From contig DOZJ01000002.1 of the NCBI GenBank assembly GCA_003518055.1, positions 378,304 to 440,362 of the forward strand: DNA of 62,059 nucleotides, in the 5' to 3' direction. The notes below the pieces were generated by a model. It was given only the letters and a program-made list of their open reading frames with translations, was not told the origin of the DNA and did no database searches. This DNA comes from Candidatus Falkowbacteria bacterium. Its GTDB lineage: Bacteria; Patescibacteriota; Patescibacteriia; UBA11705. Within the stretch, counting starts at the first letter, position 1; the number at the start of each line of letters is the position of its first letter. Position numbers and translations under genes: made by a program. Below are positions 3,136 to 62,059 of this stretch, in pieces.

Positions 3136-3981
3136 ATGATGAAAGCCATCACGTTGAGTCACGAGGATCGTGTTTATGAAGTAGCAAAGCTGGTCGGTGA
3201 GGACAGCCACGGCCGATACCGTTTGTATCGTTGTCGTGTCCCCGGAGTCGATCGAGAATATCTGCTTCAGATTGCTTCGGAGTTTAAACACAATGGTTCG
3301 TTGGATAAAGCGGCTTTTTTCCTTCGGGAATTGAAGCGCGTGGCTGATGAACTTGAAGCAGAATATAACCGGCTTGAACCGGGGAAGATGTTGAATTACC
3401 ATCTGTCATTCCCTGAACTGGTTGATAGTTTTGTGTGCGAGGAGCAGGGAAATCGCCGGGTCAATGTTCTGGCTTTCCGAAATGTTGACGTTATCAAGCG
3501 GCTGGTGCCGATTGCTAATATTGTTGAAATTGATGCGCTTCGGTGCGATCTGCGCAGCAGCGCTTGGGTCATGGGCAAGCTGTTGAAAATTCTGGTCCTA
3601 ACCCAGAGCATGAAGGTAGTCATCAATCAGGTTAATGGCGCCAATACTCTGCTCGATGCTGATCAGCATTATGTCGTGATCTTTGATTGGGCCGACTCGG
3701 AAATCCAGTCGGGTGAAATTCTTGCGGCCGTCGCCAGACGAGAAATCGGCAACGCCGCGTTCACCGTGATTGACCTCCTTGGAGGTGATTACAAGACGCG
3801 AACATTCCCCGAAGACGAGAGTGAATCCGCTGCCTATGCCGAGTACACGGCTTTTCTGCTGGGAATGGCTGACGGCCATCACAAGGATGCGGCGAAAGCG
3901 CACCGAGATTTTTACGCCGTCGTTGACAAGTATTGGTCGCGTGAGTTCTATCCTTTTACCACACACCCGCGATCCCGTTAA
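3136..3981 (+). CDS. Protein-kinase-fold-like protein, probably a pseudokinase (281 aa)
   Basis: ORF track. WVMGKLLKILVLTQSMKVVINQVNGANTLLDADQHYVVIFDWADS aligns by eye to the kinase catalytic-loop to DFG region (..vvHrDlkpeNiLld....vkliDFg.s). Q replaces the catalytic Asp and FDW replaces DFG. Confidence 0.6.
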   Translation: MMKAITLSHEDRVYEVAKLVGEDSHGRYRLYRCRVPGVDREYLLQIASEFKHNGSLDKAAFFLRELKRVADELEAEYNRLEPGKMLNYHLSFPELVDSFVCEEQGNRRVNVLAFRNVDVIKRLVPIANIVEIDALRCDLRSSAWVMGKLLKILVLTQSMKVVINQVNGANTLLDADQHYVVIFDWADSEIQSGEILAAVARREIGNAAFTVIDLLGGDYKTRTFPEDESESAAYAEYTAFLLGMADGHHKDAAKAHRDFYAVVDKYWSREFYPFTTHPRSR

Positions 3982-4001: not shown

Positions 4002-5171
4002 ATGGGACTTCGGACTCTAACCAGAGATGCCTATACTAATGTTAAATCAAGTGCTACTTTGGGTGGAACCAAAAGTGCTACTCATGCGGCTGAAGAAAGG
4101 GTTCATCGCGGTGAAGGTCTGGATCCGCTAGTTGATCCAAAGGGGCCGCCGCATCTCGGACCGGTTCGCATGTCTTTGCCTAGATATGAGAAAGTGGGAA
4201 ATCTTTGGCGTTTGACCGTCGGCATTCCTATGGCGGTAGAAAAATTGCTTGATACTACTGGGTCAATGGATAACAATGTTAATCTGGCTTTTGAAAACTG
4301 TCAGAAAGAATATGATCTCTATAGAGCTGGTGCTGTTCCTGTCCTTCATCGATATGATGTTCAGATGGCCACAGGTGCCTTCGGTGATGTTGAGGATTTT
4401 ACGAGGCTTGGTTTGCCCTTCTATTGCCGATCGCAGTTTGAGATGGATGAAAAGATCGCGGTTCAGATGTCTCTCATGGTCGCGGCCAAGAAGGGCTGGG
4501 GCAACGGCAAGGAAGACCCCCAGTTTGGCTTGTTTGGCGCTGCCTATTTGACTCAGGCGAGAATCAATGCCTACGGCCTGAAGTCTTATCACTTTACAGT
4601 GTCTGACGAACCCGTTGTGCCCGTAATTAATTATGACTGGCTGAAGCATGTCTTCGGTGATGATGTTTTGACCCATTGCGCGAGAATCGGATACCAGATG
4701 AGCGCCAATAAACTTCCCGATACGGCTCAGGTGGTCAAAGATTTACAGACAAGGGCACACGCATTTTTCCTCCTCGTAGATAATAGTCACTACGTAATTG
4801 AACAGTGGAAGGCTCTCTATGGTTCAGATCATTTCGTTTTTCTCCCGAATGGCACTACGGAGTATATCCATTTTGTGAACGCATGCATTATCGGTTTGAC
4901 CGAAGGTGTTCTTGATCTTCAAACCGCAAGGGAATTTTTGTTGGAGCATAAGCTTTCTCGTCCGGAAGCTGATAGTGTTGTTCGTGCTGTGGCCCATATT
5001 CCTCTTGGAGCTCAGGCTCAGTATCCGAACTTCGATAATCTGCCCAAGGCCGGCGATCTCTTCCGCGAGAAGACTGATCTCTGGCCGGTGGAACCGAGTG
5101 AAGTTGAGAATTCGGAAGCTACCGATGAGACTGCTGATGGCGAAAAGCCCGGCGGACCTGTCTGGCTCTGA
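4002..5171 (+). CDS. von Willebrand factor A (vWA)-like protein (389 aa)
   Basis: ORF track. GGGGAGGG SD. LLDTTGSMDNN resembles the vWA MIDAS motif DxSGSM (TerY-like). 20-nt gap from the upstream gene. Confidence 0.6.
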   Translation: MGLRTLTRDAYTNVKSSATLGGTKSATHAAEERVHRGEGLDPLVDPKGPPHLGPVRMSLPRYEKVGNLWRLTVGIPMAVEKLLDTTGSMDNNVNLAFENCQKEYDLYRAGAVPVLHRYDVQMATGAFGDVEDFTRLGLPFYCRSQFEMDEKIAVQMSLMVAAKKGWGNGKEDPQFGLFGAAYLTQARINAYGLKSYHFTVSDEPVVPVINYDWLKHVFGDDVLTHCARIGYQMSANKLPDTAQVVKDLQTRAHAFFLLVDNSHYVIEQWKALYGSDHFVFLPNGTTEYIHFVNACIIGLTEGVLDLQTAREFLLEHKLSRPEADSVVRAVAHIPLGAQAQYPNFDNLPKAGDLFREKTDLWPVEPSEVENSEATDETADGEKPGGPVWL

Positions 5172-5213
5172 TCTTTAATCCCTGAAATTAACCCCGAACT
5201 GAGGGAGGTGCGC

Positions 5214-6599
5214 ATGACCCGAAAGGTTTATGTGGTCACCGACCTCGGTCCGGGGGATGGTGGCAAGGGCGGAGTCGTTCACAAGATCGCTTCGATGCTG
5301 AAAGCGTTTCTGATTATCAAAGTGGGAGGCGCCCAAGGCAGCCATGGTGTCCGCACTTCGCGAGGTGAAAGCTTTGCGTTCAGTCAGTGGGGCTGTGGCA
5401 CGTTCGAGGGCATTCCGACTCACTTGTCACCTCGATTTATCGTTTCAATTGAAGGATTGTTGAATGAGGCCGAAGCCTTGCGCTATGGCCATGGCGTTCA
5501 CGATCCATTCAGTCTGCTGACGGTTGATCATCTGGCGCTCTGCTCAATTCCGTACCACGGTATTTCCTCGCGGCTAAAAGAATTGGCGCGCGGAAAAAAT
5601 CCGAGAGGTACGATTGGTACGGGAGTCGGCGAAGCTTTTCGCTATGCCCAAAGCCATCCGGAATTAAGTTTGAGAGTCAACGATTTGGCCCGGCCTGATA
5701 TGCGTGAGTTTCTGGCCGCAGTCCGCGATCAGATTACTCACGATCTCGAGCCAGTCATTCAGAGTGGATTTTTTGAAGAAGATGATCCGTTTGTCGAAGA
5801 AAATGTTCAGAAATTATTTGATGATGAGTTCCTGGATTTCATTACCGCTCGGGCCTATGCCTTGGCGCGAAATCTACAGGTAGTGGATCGCGATTATTTA
5901 CGGCAAATGTTCCTGCGTACTAATCGCCCGGCTGTAGTTGAAAGTTCACATGGAGTTCTGACTGATCACTACTGCGGTTTTGAACCGCATACTAGTGCCA
6001 TTCGGACTCTTCCAATGTTCGCGCATTCTATGCTTCGAGACGCTGATTTTGATGGTCAAATTGTCAATATCGGCGTGCATCGCGCATATGAAATCCGCCA
6101 CGGCGCTGGACCAATGCCAACGGCTGATGACGCCATGGGTGAAACTCTTTTGCCCGGCAGTCATAAAGAAGAAAACCGCTGGCAGGGAAAAGTTCGCGTC
6201 GGTCCGCTCGATTTGGTGCTCATGCGCTACGCGATAGCGTGCTGCGGGGGTCCCAAAGCTTTTGACGGACTGGCGATTACTTGGTTTGATCAGGTCCATG
6301 AAAATGGTGACTGGCAAATTTGTGATCATTACAAAAACGCGAAAGACAGAGAGTTTTTCACCCCTGATGGCGAGCTCAAAGTCAGTGTTGGCGACAACAT
6401 TGAACGGCTCATTTATCAGGAAGGTCTTGGGCAACAGCTTCAAGGTTGTATTCCCGAGATCAGTTCGATCCCTGTTCCCTTGAACGCGAACCGCGACGAG
6501 CTCTTCGAGCTCTGCGCCCGCGTTCTGCAGGAAAGACTTTCCGTCCCGGTGAGAATGGTCTCGCTGGGACCGACCGAAACCGACAAGGTCTGCAAGTAA
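5214..6599 (+). CDS. Divergent adenylosuccinate synthetase (PurA/AdSS)-family protein (461 aa)
   Basis: ORF track (5208). ATG at 5214 follows GAGGGAGG. Serial PurA motif matches: DLGPGDGGKGG vs GDEGKGK; GGAQGSHGV vs GGHNAGHT; RGTIGTGVGEAF vs TTGRGIGPAY; VESSHGVLTD...PHTSA vs LEGAQGTLLD...PFVTSS; HGAGPMPT vs GAGPFPTE. Confidence 0.7.
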   Translation: MTRKVYVVTDLGPGDGGKGGVVHKIASMLKAFLIIKVGGAQGSHGVRTSRGESFAFSQWGCGTFEGIPTHLSPRFIVSIEGLLNEAEALRYGHGVHDPFSLLTVDHLALCSIPYHGISSRLKELARGKNPRGTIGTGVGEAFRYAQSHPELSLRVNDLARPDMREFLAAVRDQITHDLEPVIQSGFFEEDDPFVEENVQKLFDDEFLDFITARAYALARNLQVVDRDYLRQMFLRTNRPAVVESSHGVLTDHYCGFEPHTSAIRTLPMFAHSMLRDADFDGQIVNIGVHRAYEIRHGAGPMPTADDAMGETLLPGSHKEENRWQGKVRVGPLDLVLMRYAIACCGGPKAFDGLAITWFDQVHENGDWQICDHYKNAKDREFFTPDGELKVSVGDNIERLIYQEGLGQQLQGCIPEISSIPVPLNANRDELFELCARVLQERLSVPVRMVSLGPTETDKVCK

Positions 6600-51486: not shown

Positions 51487-51556
51487 GGGGGGTTCGTATA
51501 GTGGTAGTACAGCGGTCTCCATCCCGCCGTTCGCGAACGGCGGGATCCAAAACCGT
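51487..51556 (+). pseudogene. tRNA-Trp 5' fragment (positions 1 to about 43) carrying a 28-nt insertion (26-nt palindrome plus CC) inside the anticodon
   Basis: GGGGGGTTCGTATAGTGGTAGTACAGCGGTCTCC is identical to the intact gene. This is followed by ATCCCGCCGTTCGCGAACGGCGGGAT (a perfect 26-nt palindrome, 51521-51546) plus CC, then AAAACCGT, after which similarity ends. Confidence 0.7.
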
Positions 51557-51571
51557 CATTAAATCAAATGT

Positions 51572-51823
51572 ATGAAACTTTATTACGTATATTTATTGAG
51601 GGATCAAAATAAAAAGATTTATATTGGATACACAGAAAATTTAGAGCGGCGTTTTTGTGAACATTCTGCGAAGAAAGTTTATTACACAAAAAGATTGAAT
51701 AACCCGCAAATTTATTATTTTGAAGCTTATGTAGATGAAATTATGGCCAAAGAACGAGAGAGAAAATTGAAACAATATGGCTCGGCTTACATGGGTCTGA
51801 TGAAGAGAATTGGGTTGAAATAA
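51572..51823 (+). CDS. GIY-YIG nuclease-superfamily protein (83 aa)
   Basis: YYVYLLRDQNKKIYIGYTENLERRFCEH matches the GIY-(10-11 aa)-YIG plus R motif. Confidence 0.75.
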   Translation: MKLYYVYLLRDQNKKIYIGYTENLERRFCEHSAKKVYYTKRLNNPQIYYFEAYVDEIMAKERERKLKQYGSAYMGLMKRIGLK

Positions 51824-51837
51824 AATATTTATGGCAG

Positions 51838-51911
51838 GGGGGGTTCGTATAGTGGTAGTACAGCGGTCTCCAAAACCGTTAGCGAGGGTTCAATTCCTTC
51901 ACCCCCTGCCA
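51838..51911 (+). tRNA. tRNA-Trp(CCA): tRNA-Trp (anticodon CCA at 51870-51872), CCA end encoded
   Basis: Manual cloverleaf: acceptor GGGGGGT/ACCCCCT (G1-U72), D-arm GTAT-AGTGGTA-GTAC, anticodon arm GCGGT-CTCCAAA-ACCGT, T-arm GAGGG-TTCAATT-CCTTC. Confidence 0.8.
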
Positions 51912-52404: not shown

Positions 52405-54558
52405 ATGAGTTCAAAAATTGTTGTTGATGAGATTATGCCCGGTTGCAAAGTGGCCAAAGTGGGTGGCACGGAGGTTATGTTCGGCTGTCCGTCTGAAGTG
52501 TTGAAGCTATTCAGCCGTCAGTCGAGGCAAATGCCCAAGATCATCGTCCTGCCGGATGAGTTTTATCGCTTTGGCGTGATTCAGGCGGCTTTGGAATTTG
52601 TGTTGTACGATTTCTTGTTTGTTCAGGGCCGGTTTTTCGCCGGCGAAAAATTGACAATCGTAAGCACTGAGGAGCAAGTTAACCGGATGGAAGAAATTTT
52701 GGAGTTGACGCTTCTCGGTCCGTCTCGCTGGCAGATGGAGCTTTGGGATATTCCGCCTGACATTATCGAGGATACGGTGAATTTGTCTCATCATTTCGCT
52801 CTCAAGCATCCGGGAACCGATCGGGTGGCGGCCATTGCCGATATGATAAATTTTGTGGCTTTCAACCATGATTTCGCAGAGCCTGATGGTCAAAATATTT
52901 TTATTGGCCACGGTGGCGCGAATATTTTTTCCGTCTCCGATGGTGTCAACAGTGATCGCGTTGATATCAATCTGCATGAAATGCAGGCGCCGCCGATTGA
53001 CATTCCTGTGCCTTTGACTTTGACGCCTCACGCGGTTTTCGGCGCGACGGCTATTAGTCAGTGTACTACCGGTTTTGATCCCAATGGCTACACTTCAGGA
53101 ATTTTGATTCACGTCAACGGCCTGATTATCTCCGCCGATGGTGTGGCTTGGATGAAGCCGCATTTGCAGAATCTGGGGATTAACCCCGCGGAAATTTCCG
53201 CTCATATTATCACGCACATTCATGATGATCACAGCAATATCTTTGACTTGATCGTCAACGGTGAAAAATTTCATCTTTTGGCGGACAAACTGGTTTATCA
53301 CTGCGTCGTGCGCAAAGCGGCGCTGCTACTCAATCTGTCAGAGGATAAAGTCGCTTCGTTTATCCACTGGATTGAATATAAATTAAATAAACCCCTAGAG
53401 TGGTATGGCGCGGTGTTTGAATTCTGGCCCACGGCGCATCCGATTCCGACCCGAGGCTTCAAAGTGACGGTCAGCGGCCATTCGATTATTTACAGCGGCG
53501 ATACGTGTTGGGGGTCTCAGCTCGCGGTCTTGGTTGGTAAAGGCGTGATCAGGGCGGATTTTGCTCAAAAGCTAAACGACGTGCCCAATCAAGACGCTGA
53601 TGTGATTTTTCATGATGCCGGCGGCGGTTTTGTTCATCCCTTGATTCATGAGTTGGCTGCTCTGCCGCCGCAGATTCGCCGTCATATTGTTCCCACTCAC
53701 TTGCCCAAACTGCCCCATGATTTGGTTGGTGTGTTTGAGCTGATTCATACTGGTCAAAACTGGATTTTGCTTCCTCAGAAAAGCTATGAGACCAGCACGT
53801 TTACTCAAATTCGTCGCGCGCCTTTGCTCGTCACTCTGAGCCCTGAATGGCGCAGTGTGATGTTGTCTCAGGGCACGGTTCAAGAATATCCTCCGGGTTA
53901 CATGTTGCTCAGGGAAGGTACTCCGGGTAAAAATTTTTATCTGCTTTTGGGCGGGACGGTTCAAGTATTGCAGGCAAACGAACAGGTGGCTTTGCTGTCA
54001 ACCGGTGATTTCTTTGGCGAGATTTCCTTGATGAGTGGTAGTGTCTGCAACGCTTCGATCATAACCAGAAGCCCGGTCAAAGTACTCGAATTGCCGCGGC
54101 ATATTTTTTTGGCCATGGTTCAAGCTACGGGTTTGGCGGCCAAGCTGGAAAAAATCCACAAAGTCCGTCCGATTTACATGCAGTTCTCATTGATGAAAAA
54201 TTTGCCAGCGGCGGTTCAAAACCGGTTGTTTGAAGTGACAAATATGGAGACTTGGTTGGCGGGTACGGTCATCATTCGTGAGGGTGATGTCGGTGATAAA
54301 GTTTATGGTATCATTGGCGGCCATGCTGAAGTGATTCATCTGGATCTATTGGGAGTAAGGCATAAACTGGCTGATTTGCATCCGGGGCAGATTTTTGGCG
54401 AGATGGCTTTCTTTGGTGATGGCCATCGCACGGCCGATGTGGCGGCGGTGACTGATATGACCGGTTTTTCCATTGATCGGGTCAGTTTTGAAGAAATCAT
54501 TGAAAACGTTCCGATGTTGAAATATGGTCTGGGTAAGCTGGCTGAGAGCCGCAAGTAG
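52405..54558 (+). CDS. Multidomain protein: unknown N-terminal domain, metallo-beta-lactamase-fold hydrolase, and two cyclic-nucleotide-binding domains (717 aa)
   Basis: AAGGAGGA SD. HIITHIHDDHSN (HxHxDH), later AHPIP / SGDT / FHDAGGG. Two CAP_ED-like segments (GDFFGEISLM...ASIIT and GQIFGEMAFFGDGHRTADVAA). Confidence 0.75.
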   Translation: MSSKIVVDEIMPGCKVAKVGGTEVMFGCPSEVLKLFSRQSRQMPKIIVLPDEFYRFGVIQAALEFVLYDFLFVQGRFFAGEKLTIVSTEEQVNRMEEILELTLLGPSRWQMELWDIPPDIIEDTVNLSHHFALKHPGTDRVAAIADMINFVAFNHDFAEPDGQNIFIGHGGANIFSVSDGVNSDRVDINLHEMQAPPIDIPVPLTLTPHAVFGATAISQCTTGFDPNGYTSGILIHVNGLIISADGVAWMKPHLQNLGINPAEISAHIITHIHDDHSNIFDLIVNGEKFHLLADKLVYHCVVRKAALLLNLSEDKVASFIHWIEYKLNKPLEWYGAVFEFWPTAHPIPTRGFKVTVSGHSIIYSGDTCWGSQLAVLVGKGVIRADFAQKLNDVPNQDADVIFHDAGGGFVHPLIHELAALPPQIRRHIVPTHLPKLPHDLVGVFELIHTGQNWILLPQKSYETSTFTQIRRAPLLVTLSPEWRSVMLSQGTVQEYPPGYMLLREGTPGKNFYLLLGGTVQVLQANEQVALLSTGDFFGEISLMSGSVCNASIITRSPVKVLELPRHIFLAMVQATGLAAKLEKIHKVRPIYMQFSLMKNLPAAVQNRLFEVTNMETWLAGTVIIREGDVGDKVYGIIGGHAEVIHLDLLGVRHKLADLHPGQIFGEMAFFGDGHRTADVAAVTDMTGFSIDRVSFEEIIENVPMLKYGLGKLAESRK

Positions 54559-59280: not shown

Positions 59281-59802
59281 ATGAATTTAAAAGCCAAAAT
59301 CCGTGAAGTGCCTGATTGGCCGATCACGGGGGTAAATTTCAAAGATATCACCCCCTTGCTTGAGGATGGCGAAGTTTTTCGTTATGTGATTGACAAGATG
59401 ACTGAACCGTTCAAACAACAAACAATCGATAAAGTTGTCGTGATTGATGCCCGCGGTTTTTTGCTCGGGACACCGATTGCCTACAATCTTGGCTGCGGAG
59501 TCTGTTTGGTGAGGAAAAAGGGCAAATTGCCATCAAAAACAATTGAAGCTACGTATCAAAAAGAATATGGTCCGGACACGGTCGTGATGCATGAAGATAC
59601 GATCAAGCCCGGCGAAAAAGTTTTGGTTGTTGATGATCTGCTGGCCACCGGCGGCACGCTCGGTGCCGCCATTGAGCTGGTGGAGACACTGGGCGGCGAC
59701 ATTGTCGGGGTGAGTCTGGTGGTTGACTTGCCATTTCTCGGCGGCAGCGCTAAATTTAAGTCATACAACCTGCATTGGCTGGTGAGTTATGATCAAGAGT
59801 GA
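59281..59802 (+). CDS. apt: Adenine phosphoribosyltransferase
   Basis: FKDITPLL, VLVVDDLLATGGT (PRPP motif), 173 aa. Confidence 0.9.
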   Translation: MNLKAKIREVPDWPITGVNFKDITPLLEDGEVFRYVIDKMTEPFKQQTIDKVVVIDARGFLLGTPIAYNLGCGVCLVRKKGKLPSKTIEATYQKEYGPDTVVMHEDTIKPGEKVLVVDDLLATGGTLGAAIELVETLGGDIVGVSLVVDLPFLGGSAKFKSYNLHWLVSYDQE

Positions 59803-59860
59803 GTTCGTATAACCAGCAAATTAAACGTATTAAACCGGCAAAAGTTCGGATAGAAACCAG

Positions 59861-60040
59861 TTGATCTGAAATGTCGCTCCCTGCGGGTCGCTCCATTTCA
59901 GATCAACGCGCGCGCCTGCCGGACGCTATTATCCTCTGTGTCGCCCCTACGGGAGCGACACATCAGATAACAGCGCCTATCCGAAATTTCCCTCGGAACC
60001 CTACGGGATTCCTCACGAAACTTCGGATCAGGCGCGCGCG
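59861..60040 (+). mobile_element. Integron-like ORF-less cassette A, copy 1 (180 bp; attC-like site 59901-60047)
   Basis: Begins TTGATC after G59860. Inverse core GATCAAC at 59901-59907. Long stem AACGCGCGCGCCTG...CAGGCGCGCGCGTT. Ends at G60040 before TTGTAC. Confidence 0.6.
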
Positions 60041-60541
60041 TTGTACGAAATGCCAAAAAGCCTTATAATGTAGATGTTTAATAATTAACTTTTTAACCAC
60101 AAACATTATGGAAAGACATGAACCATCAGTGGAGAGTCAGGGCAATCAACCTGTACCTCCAGAGCTTAGAGAAGAAGCAATCAAAAAAATACTTGAGGAA
60201 AGTCCGAATATGGAGAACTTTAGAAAAGAGCAAATGACAGAACAAATGCGACGTAATGGGCGTTGGGGTACTTGTGTTGATTGCCCTGACGATCAAGGGC
60301 GTACATACGGAGCAAGTAGAAGCAATAAAGTAATGCCTGAAAACTGTCCTGAGACTGACAGATACGATCATTGGCTAGGAATTGACGCCCTTGATGAAAA
60401 GTAGGACGGCTTTTTCGCACATCGTACAACACTGCATAGCCGGTTCACTCACTCCGCTGTGCTTCGTTCGTTCACCCAAATTGGCACATGTTATCACTTC
60501 GTGATATTTTAACATGCGCCAACTTCGGCTATGCAGGAACG
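60041..60541 (+). mobile_element. Integron-like cassette B (501 bp) carrying a 98-aa ORF
   Basis: Begins TTGTAC. Its own inverse core GTACAAC is at 60424-60430 (the exact complement of G+TTGTAC). Ends at G60541 before TTGATC. Confidence 0.6.
60108..60404 (+). CDS. Cassette-borne hypothetical protein (98 aa)
   Basis: ORF track. Same orientation as the array. The stop lies 19 nt before the attC-like inverse core. Confidence 0.5.
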   Translation: MERHEPSVESQGNQPVPPELREEAIKKILEESPNMENFRKEQMTEQMRRNGRWGTCVDCPDDQGRTYGASRSNKVMPENCPETDRYDHWLGIDALDEK

Positions 60542-60548
60542 TTGATCT
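60424..60548 (+). repeat. attC-like recombination site of cassette B (125 bp)
   Basis: GTACAAC-A-CTGCATAGCCG ... (inner hairpin GGCACATGTTA...TAACATGCGCC) ... CGGCTATGCAG-GAAC-G|TTGATC. Confidence 0.55.
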
Positions 60549-60721
60549 GAAATGTCGCTCCCTGCGGGTCGCTCCATTTCAGATCAACGCGCGCGCCTGC
60601 CGGACGCTATTATCCTCTGTGTCGCCCCTACGGGAGCGACACATCAGATAACAGCGCCTATCCGAAATTTCCCTCGGAACCCTACGGGATTCCTCACGAA
60701 ACTTCGGATCAGGCGCGCGCG
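60542..60721 (+). mobile_element. Integron-like ORF-less cassette A, copy 2 (identical by eye to copy 1)
   Basis: The same 180 nt as 59861-60040. Ends at G60721 before TTAGGC. Confidence 0.6.
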
Positions 60722-62003
60722 TTAGGCGAAATGCATTTTTTATATTTTGGTATTTGCCGAGATACTTCCTATTGATTTAGGGCGGAAAATTTTATAAACT
60801 CAACACCATTATTTTATCAAGTCAAGTATGACCGAACGAATGAAAACAACCGAATATGCTGACGAGCGACAAAATGTTACCACCCTATTTTCTAGCGTTG
60901 GCATTGAAACGCCGCAGCAAATAACAATCCAGCAGAGCCCCGGAGAAACGTATGATCTTGAACCACGGCCAGAAGATAACTGGGTTTATGCCGCCTTGCT
61001 CGGACTCAAAGAACTCAACAGGCGGCTTGAGGTAGAGGGTCGGGCATGCAGACACTTTATTACTGTCGGCACTGGGCCCGGATTAGATGCAATCGGTGCA
61101 TATCACATTTTTCATCCTGACTTCATTCGTGTTACTGACATCAACGAACGTGCCGCCCAAATCGCACTAGGAAATCTACGCGCAAATCTTCCTAAAGATA
61201 GTCATGTCGTGTCTGCATGCAGTGCAGGCAACCTGCTTGAGGTGGACTTGAAGGATTGGGATACTCCGACACAAACGCCGCCTGTTGATGTTATTTATGC
61301 AAACTTGCCAAATATTCCGGCAAAAGATGTTGATATTAAATCGAGCAAGGCAGCAACTTATATAGACGAAAAACTGCTACAAGGCTGTCCTGAAAATTTA
61401 GATCGTTATCTTCTGGCCTTGCAGTACAAGTTTTTACAGCAAGCTCACAAAGTATTGTCTCAAGGGGGCTCTGCTGTCATTGCGCTTGGAGCAAGAGTAC
61501 CTTACTTAGCTATCCATAAGTTATTTGCTGCGGCTCATCTGCGGTTCGAAGAATTATTTGCAACTTTGAAAGTTCAAACACAACCCGAAGATGTTATTCC
61601 TGGTTATGCCAACGCTGAAAATGAACGGGCGGTAACATTTACGTTCTACGATTACGACCAAGTGCTTGCTTCTGGACTTCTAAATGCACCGATGACTGGC
61701 GAACAAATGCAACAGCAATTACAACCATATGCACTTTCAAGCCAGCAAGCACTTGTCGCTCGTCAGCAAGGAAAGCGTATCGGTCATATTGTTTCCATTC
61801 TGCGAGGAATAAAGGAATAAAATTTCCCGCCCTTTATGGTAAAGTATCTCGGCAAATGCAATTGATAATAAAAAATGCACATCGCCTAACACGCAGTATG
61901 CGACTACGCTCCTCGTACCTCGTCGCTTCGTCCATATTTGCCCGTGGTAAGCTCCCGCTGGTCGCAAATTTTACCACGGGCAAACATCGCATACTGCAGA
62001 ACG
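60722..62003 (+). mobile_element. Integron-like cassette C (1282 bp) carrying a methyltransferase gene
   Basis: Begins TTAGGC. Inverse core GCCTAAC at 61884-61890 (the complement of GTTAGGC, the classical GTTRRRY core). Ends at G62003 before TTGATC. Confidence 0.6.
60828..61820 (+). CDS. Class I SAM-dependent N-methyltransferase-like protein (330 aa)
   Basis: FITVGTGPGLDAI (motif I), VTDIN (acidic end of beta-2), VIYANLPNIP (an NPPY-like N-x-P motif of amino-methyltransferases). Confidence 0.6.
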   Translation: MTERMKTTEYADERQNVTTLFSSVGIETPQQITIQQSPGETYDLEPRPEDNWVYAALLGLKELNRRLEVEGRACRHFITVGTGPGLDAIGAYHIFHPDFIRVTDINERAAQIALGNLRANLPKDSHVVSACSAGNLLEVDLKDWDTPTQTPPVDVIYANLPNIPAKDVDIKSSKAATYIDEKLLQGCPENLDRYLLALQYKFLQQAHKVLSQGGSAVIALGARVPYLAIHKLFAAAHLRFEELFATLKVQTQPEDVIPGYANAENERAVTFTFYDYDQVLASGLLNAPMTGEQMQQQLQPYALSSQQALVARQQGKRIGHIVSILRGIKE

Positions 62004-62010
62004 TTGATCT
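61884..62010 (+). repeat. attC-like recombination site of cassette C (127 bp)
   Basis: GCCTAAC-AC-GCAGTATGCGA ... (inner hairpin ATTTGCCCGTGGTAA...TTACCACGGGCAAA) ... TCGCATACTGC-AGAAC-G|TTGATC. Same architecture as attC-B with covarying stems. Confidence 0.55.
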
Positions 62011-62059
62011 GAAATGGAGCGACCCGCAGGGAGCGACATTTCAGATCAACGCGCGCGCC
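62004..62059 (+). mobile_element. Cassette A, copy 3 (truncated by the window end) with its 20-nt core inverted
   Basis: The flanks match copies 1 and 2. Positions 62017-62036 are the exact reverse complement of 59874-59893. Confidence 0.6.

Follow-up and report, generated by a model that had tools for sequence, protein, structure and literature searches.

Integron integrases are currently thought to have gained the ability to recombine single-stranded cassettes through an additional helix, I2, which is held to be necessary for cassette capture, and no ancestor or intermediate is known (PMC7790495). Both integrons and the CTX phage have been described as exchanging one strand, with resolution by replication (PMC7790495). 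Smyshlyaev et al. placed the Xer-related recombinases from candidate phyla in a group 'Cand' and assumed a Xer role for them (PMC8138268). In a literature search, with subscription journals outside its reach, no account was found of integrons or similar arrays in bacteria of the candidate phyla radiation (CPR), and the CPR is absent from the lists of integron-bearing phyla that were found. Here we describe a locus on contig DOZJ01000002.1 of a Candidatus Falkowbacteria bacterium, in a stretch of 62,059 nucleotides (nt) that is called the window below. Its positions 59804-62059 quite probably are the attI-proximal part of a chromosomal cassette platform, representing an integron-like system with a wide distribution among CPR bacteria. 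Although its mode of operation is that of an integron, the element does not qualify as one in the strict sense.

The cassette array behind apt

A dif-like attI core lies directly after apt and is followed by the units A, B, A, C and A', all on the forward strand. The core (59838-59872) consists of a left arm TTCGGATAGAA (59845-59855), a centre ACCAG (59856-59860) and a right arm TTGATCTGAAAT (59861-59872), and the first crossover falls at G59860|T59861. The first copy of cassette A (59861-60040, 180 nt) is without a credible open reading frame (ORF). Cassette B (60041-60541, 501 nt) holds an ORF of 98 amino acids (aa) at 60108-60404 and a 3' site at 60419-60541. It is followed by a second A (60542-60721), identical to the first, by cassette C (60722-62003, 1282 nt) with an ORF of 330 aa at 60828-61820 and a 3' site at 61879-62003, and by A' (62004-62059), the third A copy, which is truncated by the end of the window. 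In this A-B-A-C-A' order (59861-62059), the sequence common to the copies begins and ends within GTT at five of five junctions. A sequence-only reading of the window had located these G|TT junctions correctly (59860/61, 60040/41, 60541/42, 60721/22 and 62003/04), as it had the start boxes TTGATC, TTGTAC and TTAGGC, the complementary boxes GTACAAC of B (60424) and GCCTAAC of C (61884), and the orientation of each ORF toward its 3' folded site. No Pfam family was matched by the cargo ORFs of B and C, and an assignment of the C ORF by eye to the methyltransferases was dropped.

The assignment of the core depends on a matrix derived from the sites beside the recombinase genes in 22 complete elements, to which it can also be aligned. 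This matrix gives 16.5 bits at window positions 59838-59859, while the runner-up among 2137 GTT positions reaches 3.5. A second copy of the recombinase-arm-like motif, TTCGTATAACC, forms a distal box at 59804-59814, 2 nt past the apt stop. Because of this core and this box, the window does contain an attI-like region, with only the gene absent; the sequence-only reading had seen no attI. Beside recombinases, the core follows the consensus NN-TTCG(C/T)ATA-N2-3-AA(C/G)GA|GTT-N4-GAAAT and takes the form ACTTCGCATAA-TAACGAG-TTATCGGAAAT, and a second TTCGCATAAC box is often found about 45-50 nt upstream (loci L092, L084, L157 and L126). The layout is dif-like, with an 11-nt arm, a centre of 6-7 nt and another 11-nt arm, and the core resembles the dif sites GGTGCGCATAA-TGTATA-TTATGTTAAAT of E. 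coli and ACTTCCTAGAA-TATATA-TTATGTAAACT of B. subtilis. The top-strand 3' half of the cassette sites is almost identical to the attI sequence (consensus AAACTTCGCATAT..AAAC|GTT).

The sequence-only reading had stated a permutation rule, according to which the start of each cassette complements its own inverse core. Statistics over 134 cassettes from about 120 related loci uphold this rule. In 64 of 134 cases, the 4-nt box next to GTT and the inverse box of the same cassette show perfect complementarity; for the box across the same site this holds in 8 of 133 cases, and for random partners in 5.6%. Over the next (outer) 18 nt a mean of 11.0 positions match, compared with 5.7. Locus L012 carries eleven cassettes in direct succession, all built on one common plan, and one of them is duplicated with 98.7% identity over 535 nt and with different neighbours on both sides. 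Both edges of the duplicate lie exactly in GTT, and the downstream site has been retained with the cassette. On the strength of the statistics and the duplicate, the mobile unit is an ORF together with its 3' site, and crossover takes place in GTT, which supports the earlier proposal of circularly permuted, recombinase-type gene cassettes. Thus, as in integrons, crossover is at G|TT, each cassette has its own 3' site and its start complements the inverse core. Two other crossover positions, between N4 and GAAAT and at the 5' box, are excluded by the array data and the duplicate.

The complementarity between the start and the region before the site is real, but it extends far beyond the 7 nt that had been proposed. 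It amounts to 23 nt in B, the outer stem of which pairs 60040-60062 with 60408-60430, and to 27+16+17 nt in C, where the ORF is enclosed by interrupted inverted repeats (60717-60795 with 61817-61894). The latter repeat, of about 78 nt, far exceeds the needs of a recombinase arm. Long, cassette-specific pairing between the 5' and 3' flanks is frequent in this cassette family and is not a trait of classical integron cassettes.

Folded cassette sites and the ORF-less unit A

All cassettes follow a plan in which TT-N4-GAAAT and a cassette-specific stretch precede any ORF, and the complement of this stretch, ACATC-N4-AAC and an element of 70-190 nt ending in ..AC-G come after it. In the eleven cassettes of L012, the second box reads ACATC-N4-AAC-A, and another GTT comes after ..AC. 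The folded sites are co-oriented and span 90-210 nt. In an alignment of 90 sites made with MAFFT (A1), the single strand folds into a stem P1 of about 12 bp, to which the hairpins P2 and P3 are usually added in a three-way arrangement, and the junction motifs GGTTC, CACCCAAATT and AAACTTC are conserved. The paired cells of the alignment amount to 91.7%, against 62.9% in shuffles and 34-48% in controls with partners slid by 1-3 columns. The covariation score of 0.666 (0.152 when shuffled) was reached in none of 500 shuffles. The stems pointed out by the sequence-only reading, CTGCATAGCCG/CGGCTATGCAG in B and GCAGTATGCGA/TCGCATACTGC in C, are indeed there, and GAACG terminates both sites.

A covariance model built for these cassette sites, R1, matches 309 sites in 100 sources. 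It has exactly four matches in the window, all of them sites of the array on the forward strand and all within 2.2 kb: site B (60419-60553) with 101.5 bits, site C (61879-62015) with 82.2 bits, and the sites of the first (59960-60051) and second (60641-60732) copies of A with 40.2 and 41.8 bits, respectively. In sites that were not selected by pattern, AAC and GTT are 88-95% conserved. The four variable core positions deviate from the R/Y rule, with AGCT, ATAT and GTAC being frequent, and in the window RYYYAAC/GTTRRRY is satisfied by C alone. Rfam gave no match in the array, neither at gathering scores nor at E-values up to 10.

The central region of the sites has a conserved one-sided bulge of 3 nt (4 nt opposite 1 nt), and a mismatch of 2 nt is conserved in the right arm. 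The bottom strand is the more stable fold in 115 of 133 sites, and on this strand one of the two mismatches turns into a G-T pair, which hints at the use of the bottom strand as in integrons. The sequence-only reading had suggested a look at the folded bottom strand for extrahelical bases and an unpaired central spacer. The bulge is one-sided instead of a symmetric spacer, and no conserved extrahelical bases were seen in the sites, an extra base in P1 occurring in a subset only. The first 25 nt of the C site (window 61879-61912) are identical to a site in a Kerfeldbacteria metagenome-assembled genome (MAG; L038, 4510-4545), and the B site resembles sites in other CPR MAGs (L056, L075, L078, L082, L088, L106 and L112). 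Because of these likenesses, similar sites can be said to be common to several CPR lineages.

Unit A, which has no credible ORF, represents a recurrent type of cassette with a tendency to occupy the first place after attI. A perfect hairpin takes up 59860-59907, and a GC clamp pairs 59908-59918 with 60029-60039; the unit further has an internal, imperfect inverse box and a short P1 site. It folds very stably into hairpin and clamp, at -61 kcal/mol (z = -10.9). The hairpin and clamp fold shares bases with the fold of the inverse box and P1 site, so that the two are mutually exclusive. The box GATCAAC at 59901, taken by the sequence-only reading as the counterpart of the boxes of B and C, is present but forms the second arm of the separate perfect hairpin. 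The homologous box is ACATCAGATAAC at 59960-59971, according to the covariance-model match. The 14-nt arm of the hairpin is confined to the array, with six exact matches versus 0.96 (at most 2 mismatches) expected in 62-kb shuffles.

The same plan is found with a different sequence in L104, L086, L100 and L166, and hairpin and clamp covary among them. These A-type units (L104, 5036-7500; L086, 1600-1793; L100, 1990-2170; L166, upstream of the recombinase) have no ORF, and each of them combines a GTT-N4-GAAAT hairpin, perfectly paired, with a GC clamp and an imperfect box inside the unit. As in the window, such units take turns with ORF cassettes in L104, and in L086 the triplets are seemingly GAT/ATC in place of GTT/AAC. 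An A-type unit is first after the attI-like core in three places: in the window, in L014/L016 and in L166. The last of these, a unit homologous to A of the window, stands next to the gene of a recombinase homologue that was found by protein similarity.

A scan for promoters and terminators stayed at chance level in the array, which leaves the idea of A as a promoter cassette unsupported. In A', the 20-nt hairpin loop (62017-62036) is the reverse complement of the loops at 59874-59893 and 60555-60574, and the 14-bp arms are unchanged. Of the other assemblies, six extend as far as the hairpin; all six have this inverted loop, and in four or five of them the sequence goes on into the remainder of A. 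The third A copy is complete in other assemblies. The inversion could have come about by template switching at the perfect palindrome, or by recombination between two inverted GTT boxes.

Recombinases and distribution of related arrays

Searches by tblastn with IntI1 (a query 100% identical to annotated IntI1) and XerD revealed a tyrosine recombinase in 30 of 120 related loci. The 22 complete genes encode proteins of 270-310 aa and are divergent without exception. In each of these 22 loci the attI-like core is situated between the recombinase gene and the first cassette, with its first GTT-N4-GAAAT at 59-196 nt from the start codon. The integron-like context that the sequence-only reading had proposed is therefore borne out by the related arrays.

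With the integron integrase model TIGR02249 these recombinases score 211-228 bits in two stretches, below the cut-off of 265, with NF040815 (archaeal XerA / integron integrase) 218-236 bits at a cut-off of 220, and with the XerC and XerD models 176-196 bits. The best solved structure, VchIntIA, is matched in two pieces, and residues 172-240 of the chain are skipped. A MAFFT alignment showed that all catalytic residues are retained and that, as in XerD, the proteins are without residues ~195-236 of IntI1, the I2 segment of about 42 aa. The absent stretch includes K219 and Y220, which belong to I2 (PMC7790495). An integrase with the additional domain I2, which the IntegronFinder definition of an integron demands through matches to both PF00589 and the IntI-specific profile, is found neither in the related complete elements nor in the window, which is without a recombinase. 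IntI-type traits are nevertheless visible in YS-x-RT close to the N terminus and in a C-terminal (I/V)xSPL, the latter as in IntI1. The family comprises at least 6651 proteins at E <= 1e-30, named 'site-specific tyrosine recombinase/integron integrase' by NCBI and 'XerD' by JGI. The current filter for integron integrases would reject such a recombinase, because it requires the IntI-specific domain.

Homologues of the recombinase that were retrieved by protein similarity alone also have an attI-like core, and at least eight further loci have such a core without an adjacent recombinase. One MAG harbours two platforms, one with recombinase and attI (L097) and one with an attI-like site and no recombinase (L116). 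On the contigs L160-L162, with recombinase P0006, the core precedes a complete type I restriction-modification operon (HsdM, a 251-aa protein, HsdS and HsdR), and for 6 kb no cassette site is seen; the arrangement could represent either a defence cassette of very large size or a cassette-free platform. In L038, the array-adjacent recombinase is matched in two pieces about 1 kb apart (2103-2330 and 3412-3936), and the gene may be interrupted or decayed.

In genomes of GTDB, the full-site pattern has at least 120 matching stretches, with an estimated chance expectation of about 3, and among the matches listed nearly all are from MAGs of CPR/Patescibacteria. The site family is thus overwhelmingly found in CPR genomes, in agreement with the CPR-like host that the sequence-only reading had suspected. 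The same type of site is seen in MAGs labelled Woesearchaeota (L040), Gammaproteobacteria, Bdellovibrionales, Mycoplasmatota, Omnitrophota and Flavobacteriales, the labels being taken as given; the loci with labels other than CPR include, besides L040, L046, L052, L058, L068, L090 and L103. With a comparable two-box pattern, viral contigs gave single, chance-like matches only.

At least eight independent public assemblies contain the array sequence itself, and every one of them breaks inside A. Units 88-90% identical to A occur in other contigs of JGI metagenomes, which were scanned with the 3' end of A. A scan of GTDB for the A hairpin gave 0 matches; either the representatives do not include this species or A was left unassembled there. 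In sample ERZ5996431, the 435-kb contig NODE_4 (L001, 9640-10010) reads apt-A-C, with exactly B+A (681 nt) missing in comparison with window 59786-60830, and a contig of 2.1 kb from the same sample reads A-B-A-C-A. The shorter arrangement may be a real presence/absence variant, a homologous deletion or an assembler path.

Two other regions of the window are of some interest. At 51489-51911, a duplicate of the first 34 nt of tRNA-Trp (51489-51522), with an inserted hairpin behind it, lies upstream of an 83-aa GIY-YIG gene, after which comes the intact tRNA-Trp (51838-51911). The arrangement has the appearance of a small mobile element or of a scar left by an insertion at the tRNA. At 52405-54558, a 717-aa protein is encoded, with precomputed matches to anti-Pycsar Apyc1-type and cyclic-nucleotide-binding domains.

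Proposed mechanism, alternatives and known systems

The catalyst of the system is likely an I2-less tyrosine recombinase of 270-280 aa related to IntI and to archaeal XerA, which is found beside the relatives of the array and presumably serves it as well. Strand exchange would occur between G and TT. In the circularised cassette, P1 could act as the left arm, the bulged region as the centre and the duplex TT-N4-GAAAT/ACATC-N4-AA, with its fixed 2-nt mismatch, as the right arm. The rebuilt two-arm core of the folded circular cassette would then mimic the double-stranded attI. The permutation rule would be explained in this way, since the right arm can be expected to form fully only in the circular cassette. 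The unpaired centre should block a second strand exchange, so that one strand would be exchanged and the product resolved by replication. Taken together, the bulged centre, the conserved 2-nt mismatch and the stabler bottom strand suggest such a one-strand exchange with replication.

Several points weigh against the integron-like platform. The choice of strand, the point of cleavage and the single-strand mechanism are all read from sequence only. No recombinase of the family was found in the 62-kb window by tblastn with IntI1, XerD and then 22 CPR recombinases, as the sequence-only reading had already noted for the part in its view. The contigs of two close homologues of the L051 recombinase come from other samples, so they do not supply the recombinase of this genome, which must act on the array in trans from elsewhere or be lost. 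The motifs of alignment A1 were partly imposed by the pattern with which the sites had been retrieved; the boxes are nonetheless 75-98% conserved in 87 R1 matches outside this pattern. Direct evidence of movement is lacking for this population, as the apt-A-C contig can equally have arisen from homologous recombination between A copies or from an assembler path. Finally, two cassettes of L012 violate the 4-nt rule and are bordered by hybrid P1 arms. These rule-breakers (reverse complement 4511-6200) start with AGAC and GGGC and have the inverse boxes GCCC and GCAG, and their outer stems still pair; in the cassette at 5695, the P1 arms are swapped between its two flanking sites. The swapped arms suggest that exchange took place at a different point, or that similar sites recombined homologously.

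The serious rival is that the core is a chromosomal dif, the site of dimer resolution, and the recombinase a housekeeping Xer, which the cassettes exploit and at whose target they accumulate, much like the CTX phage and similar elements in Vibrio. The core, of 28-30 bp with two 11-bp arms and a centre of 6-8 bp, is built like the dif sites of E. coli and B. subtilis, and the recombinases are of Xer length, without I2, and labelled XerD by JGI. The Xer role assumed for the 'Cand' recombinases (PMC8138268) points the same way, as does the GC skew, which is positive in the window all the way up to the array. We nevertheless consider this unlikely. A dif would be a single site at the replication terminus, whereas one MAG has two platforms (L097 and L116), at least eight loci have an attI-like site with no adjacent recombinase, and neither GC skew nor gene orientation switches at the arrays (over 32 flanks on the left and 46 on the right, a weak argument with flanks of only 2-6 kb). 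Furthermore, the cargo consists of single, small, co-oriented genes and not of phages or plasmids, and YS-x-RT and (I/V)xSPL are traits of the IntI type.

It could also be imagined that the array is a remnant of canonical attC sites, served by a standard I2-bearing IntI encoded elsewhere in the genome. Its integron-type organisation, the invariant AAC and GTT, the hairpins with an unpaired central part and the fit of C to RYYYAAC/GTTRRRY would agree with this, as would the words 'integron integrase' in the NCBI family name of the neighbouring recombinases. However, every recombinase beside this type of site is without the ~42-aa IntI segment and remains, with 211-228 bits, below the TIGR02249 cut-off of 265. 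The boxes conserved beyond the 7-nt core, and the junction motifs GGTTC, CACCCAAATT and AAACTTC, are foreign to canonical attC, and R1 gave nothing above noise on two class 1 integrons, with about eight cassettes. The proposal of the sequence-only reading that these are attC sites of the canonical kind is not supported, C being the only one to fit the consensus, and a standard IntI acting from elsewhere is very improbable. Least credible of all are non-mobile structured repeats between genes, such as repetitive extragenic palindromic (REP)-like elements, terminators or an RNA motif, or an assembly artefact. The strong structure of the sites, the absence of an ORF from A and the break of all contigs in A could be cited in their favour. 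Yet a structural repeat offers no reason for a 5' flank that complements its own 3' flank and not the other side of the repeat. The duplicate in L012 has exact GTT edges, and the sites are consistently associated with a recombinase and an attI-like core. Rfam has no match, and the identical sequence was recovered in at least eight independent assemblies.

Returning to the integron-like platform, a wider proposal, on which we are evenly divided, is that a true integron operates in CPR bacteria, and perhaps in some DPANN archaea too, by means of recombinases in which the I2 helix was never present or has been lost. The folded cassette sites, as copies of a dif-like attI, would then be recognised through other structural cues, for which the one-sided bulge and the fixed 2-nt mismatch are candidates. 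If true, the system would be either the "long-sought" state before I2, between Xer/dif and integrons, or the same solution invented a second time. A natural family that pairs I2-less, IntI-like recombinases with a dif-like attI and folded cassette sites would make the question of the origin of I2 directly testable, and it would reveal a cassette pool in the CPR, a major and poorly understood part of bacterial diversity.

Among the known systems, the pdif modules of Acinetobacter plasmids are comparable in that genes are bounded by Xer-type sites. Their flanking sites are double-stranded, 28 bp long and in alternating orientation, whereas the sites described here are all co-oriented, 90-210 nt long and folded. 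With XerCD/dif and the CTX phage, the system has in common a recombinase without I2 and a dif-like 11-6/7-11 target. As in Vibrio cholerae's CTX phage, a folded single strand with an unpaired centre would mimic a double-stranded target (PMC7790495). In contrast to the elements that exploit Xer, the cargo consists of arrays of small single-gene cassettes and not of phages, and the recombinase gene adjoins the site; unlike with XerCD/dif, several platforms per genome are possible and no link to the replication terminus was seen. With its four co-oriented sites in 2.2 kb and no recombinase gene nearby, the array resembles a cluster of attC sites lacking integron-integrases (CALIN; Cury et al. 2016, IntegronFinder), but it keeps an attI-like core at its start. 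Archaeal integrons (Ghaly et al. 2022, PMC9668308) were likewise recognised through MAGs of uncultivated lineages, and most of their arrays are also without an integrase. One locus with the present site type is labelled Woesearchaeota (L040). For the IntIs of archaeal integrons, however, the presence of the IntI-specific additional domain is reported, and for their attCs a likeness to the bacterial ones (PMC9668308).

Much is also shared with the integrons themselves, those of class 1 and the chromosomal ones of Vibrio. In both systems, a divergent tyrosine recombinase stands beside attI and is followed by co-oriented single-gene cassettes. An imperfect palindrome that folds, with AAC...GTT as its limits, closes each cassette; crossover is at G|TT, and the inverse core of a cassette is complemented by the start of the same cassette. 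Cassettes devoid of an ORF and arrays without a recombinase also occur in both. The CPR-type system differs in that its recombinase is without I2 (IntI1 ~195-236), and in the architecture of its sites. The paired box is at least 11 nt long (TT-N4-GAAAT), with a conserved 2-nt mismatch and 10-70 nt of additional cassette-specific pairing. In place of a symmetric spacer there is a one-sided bulge of 3 nt, and conserved extrahelical bases were not seen. Inside, the sites form a conserved three-way junction that carries sequence motifs, and attI is dif-like and accompanied by a second direct repeat.

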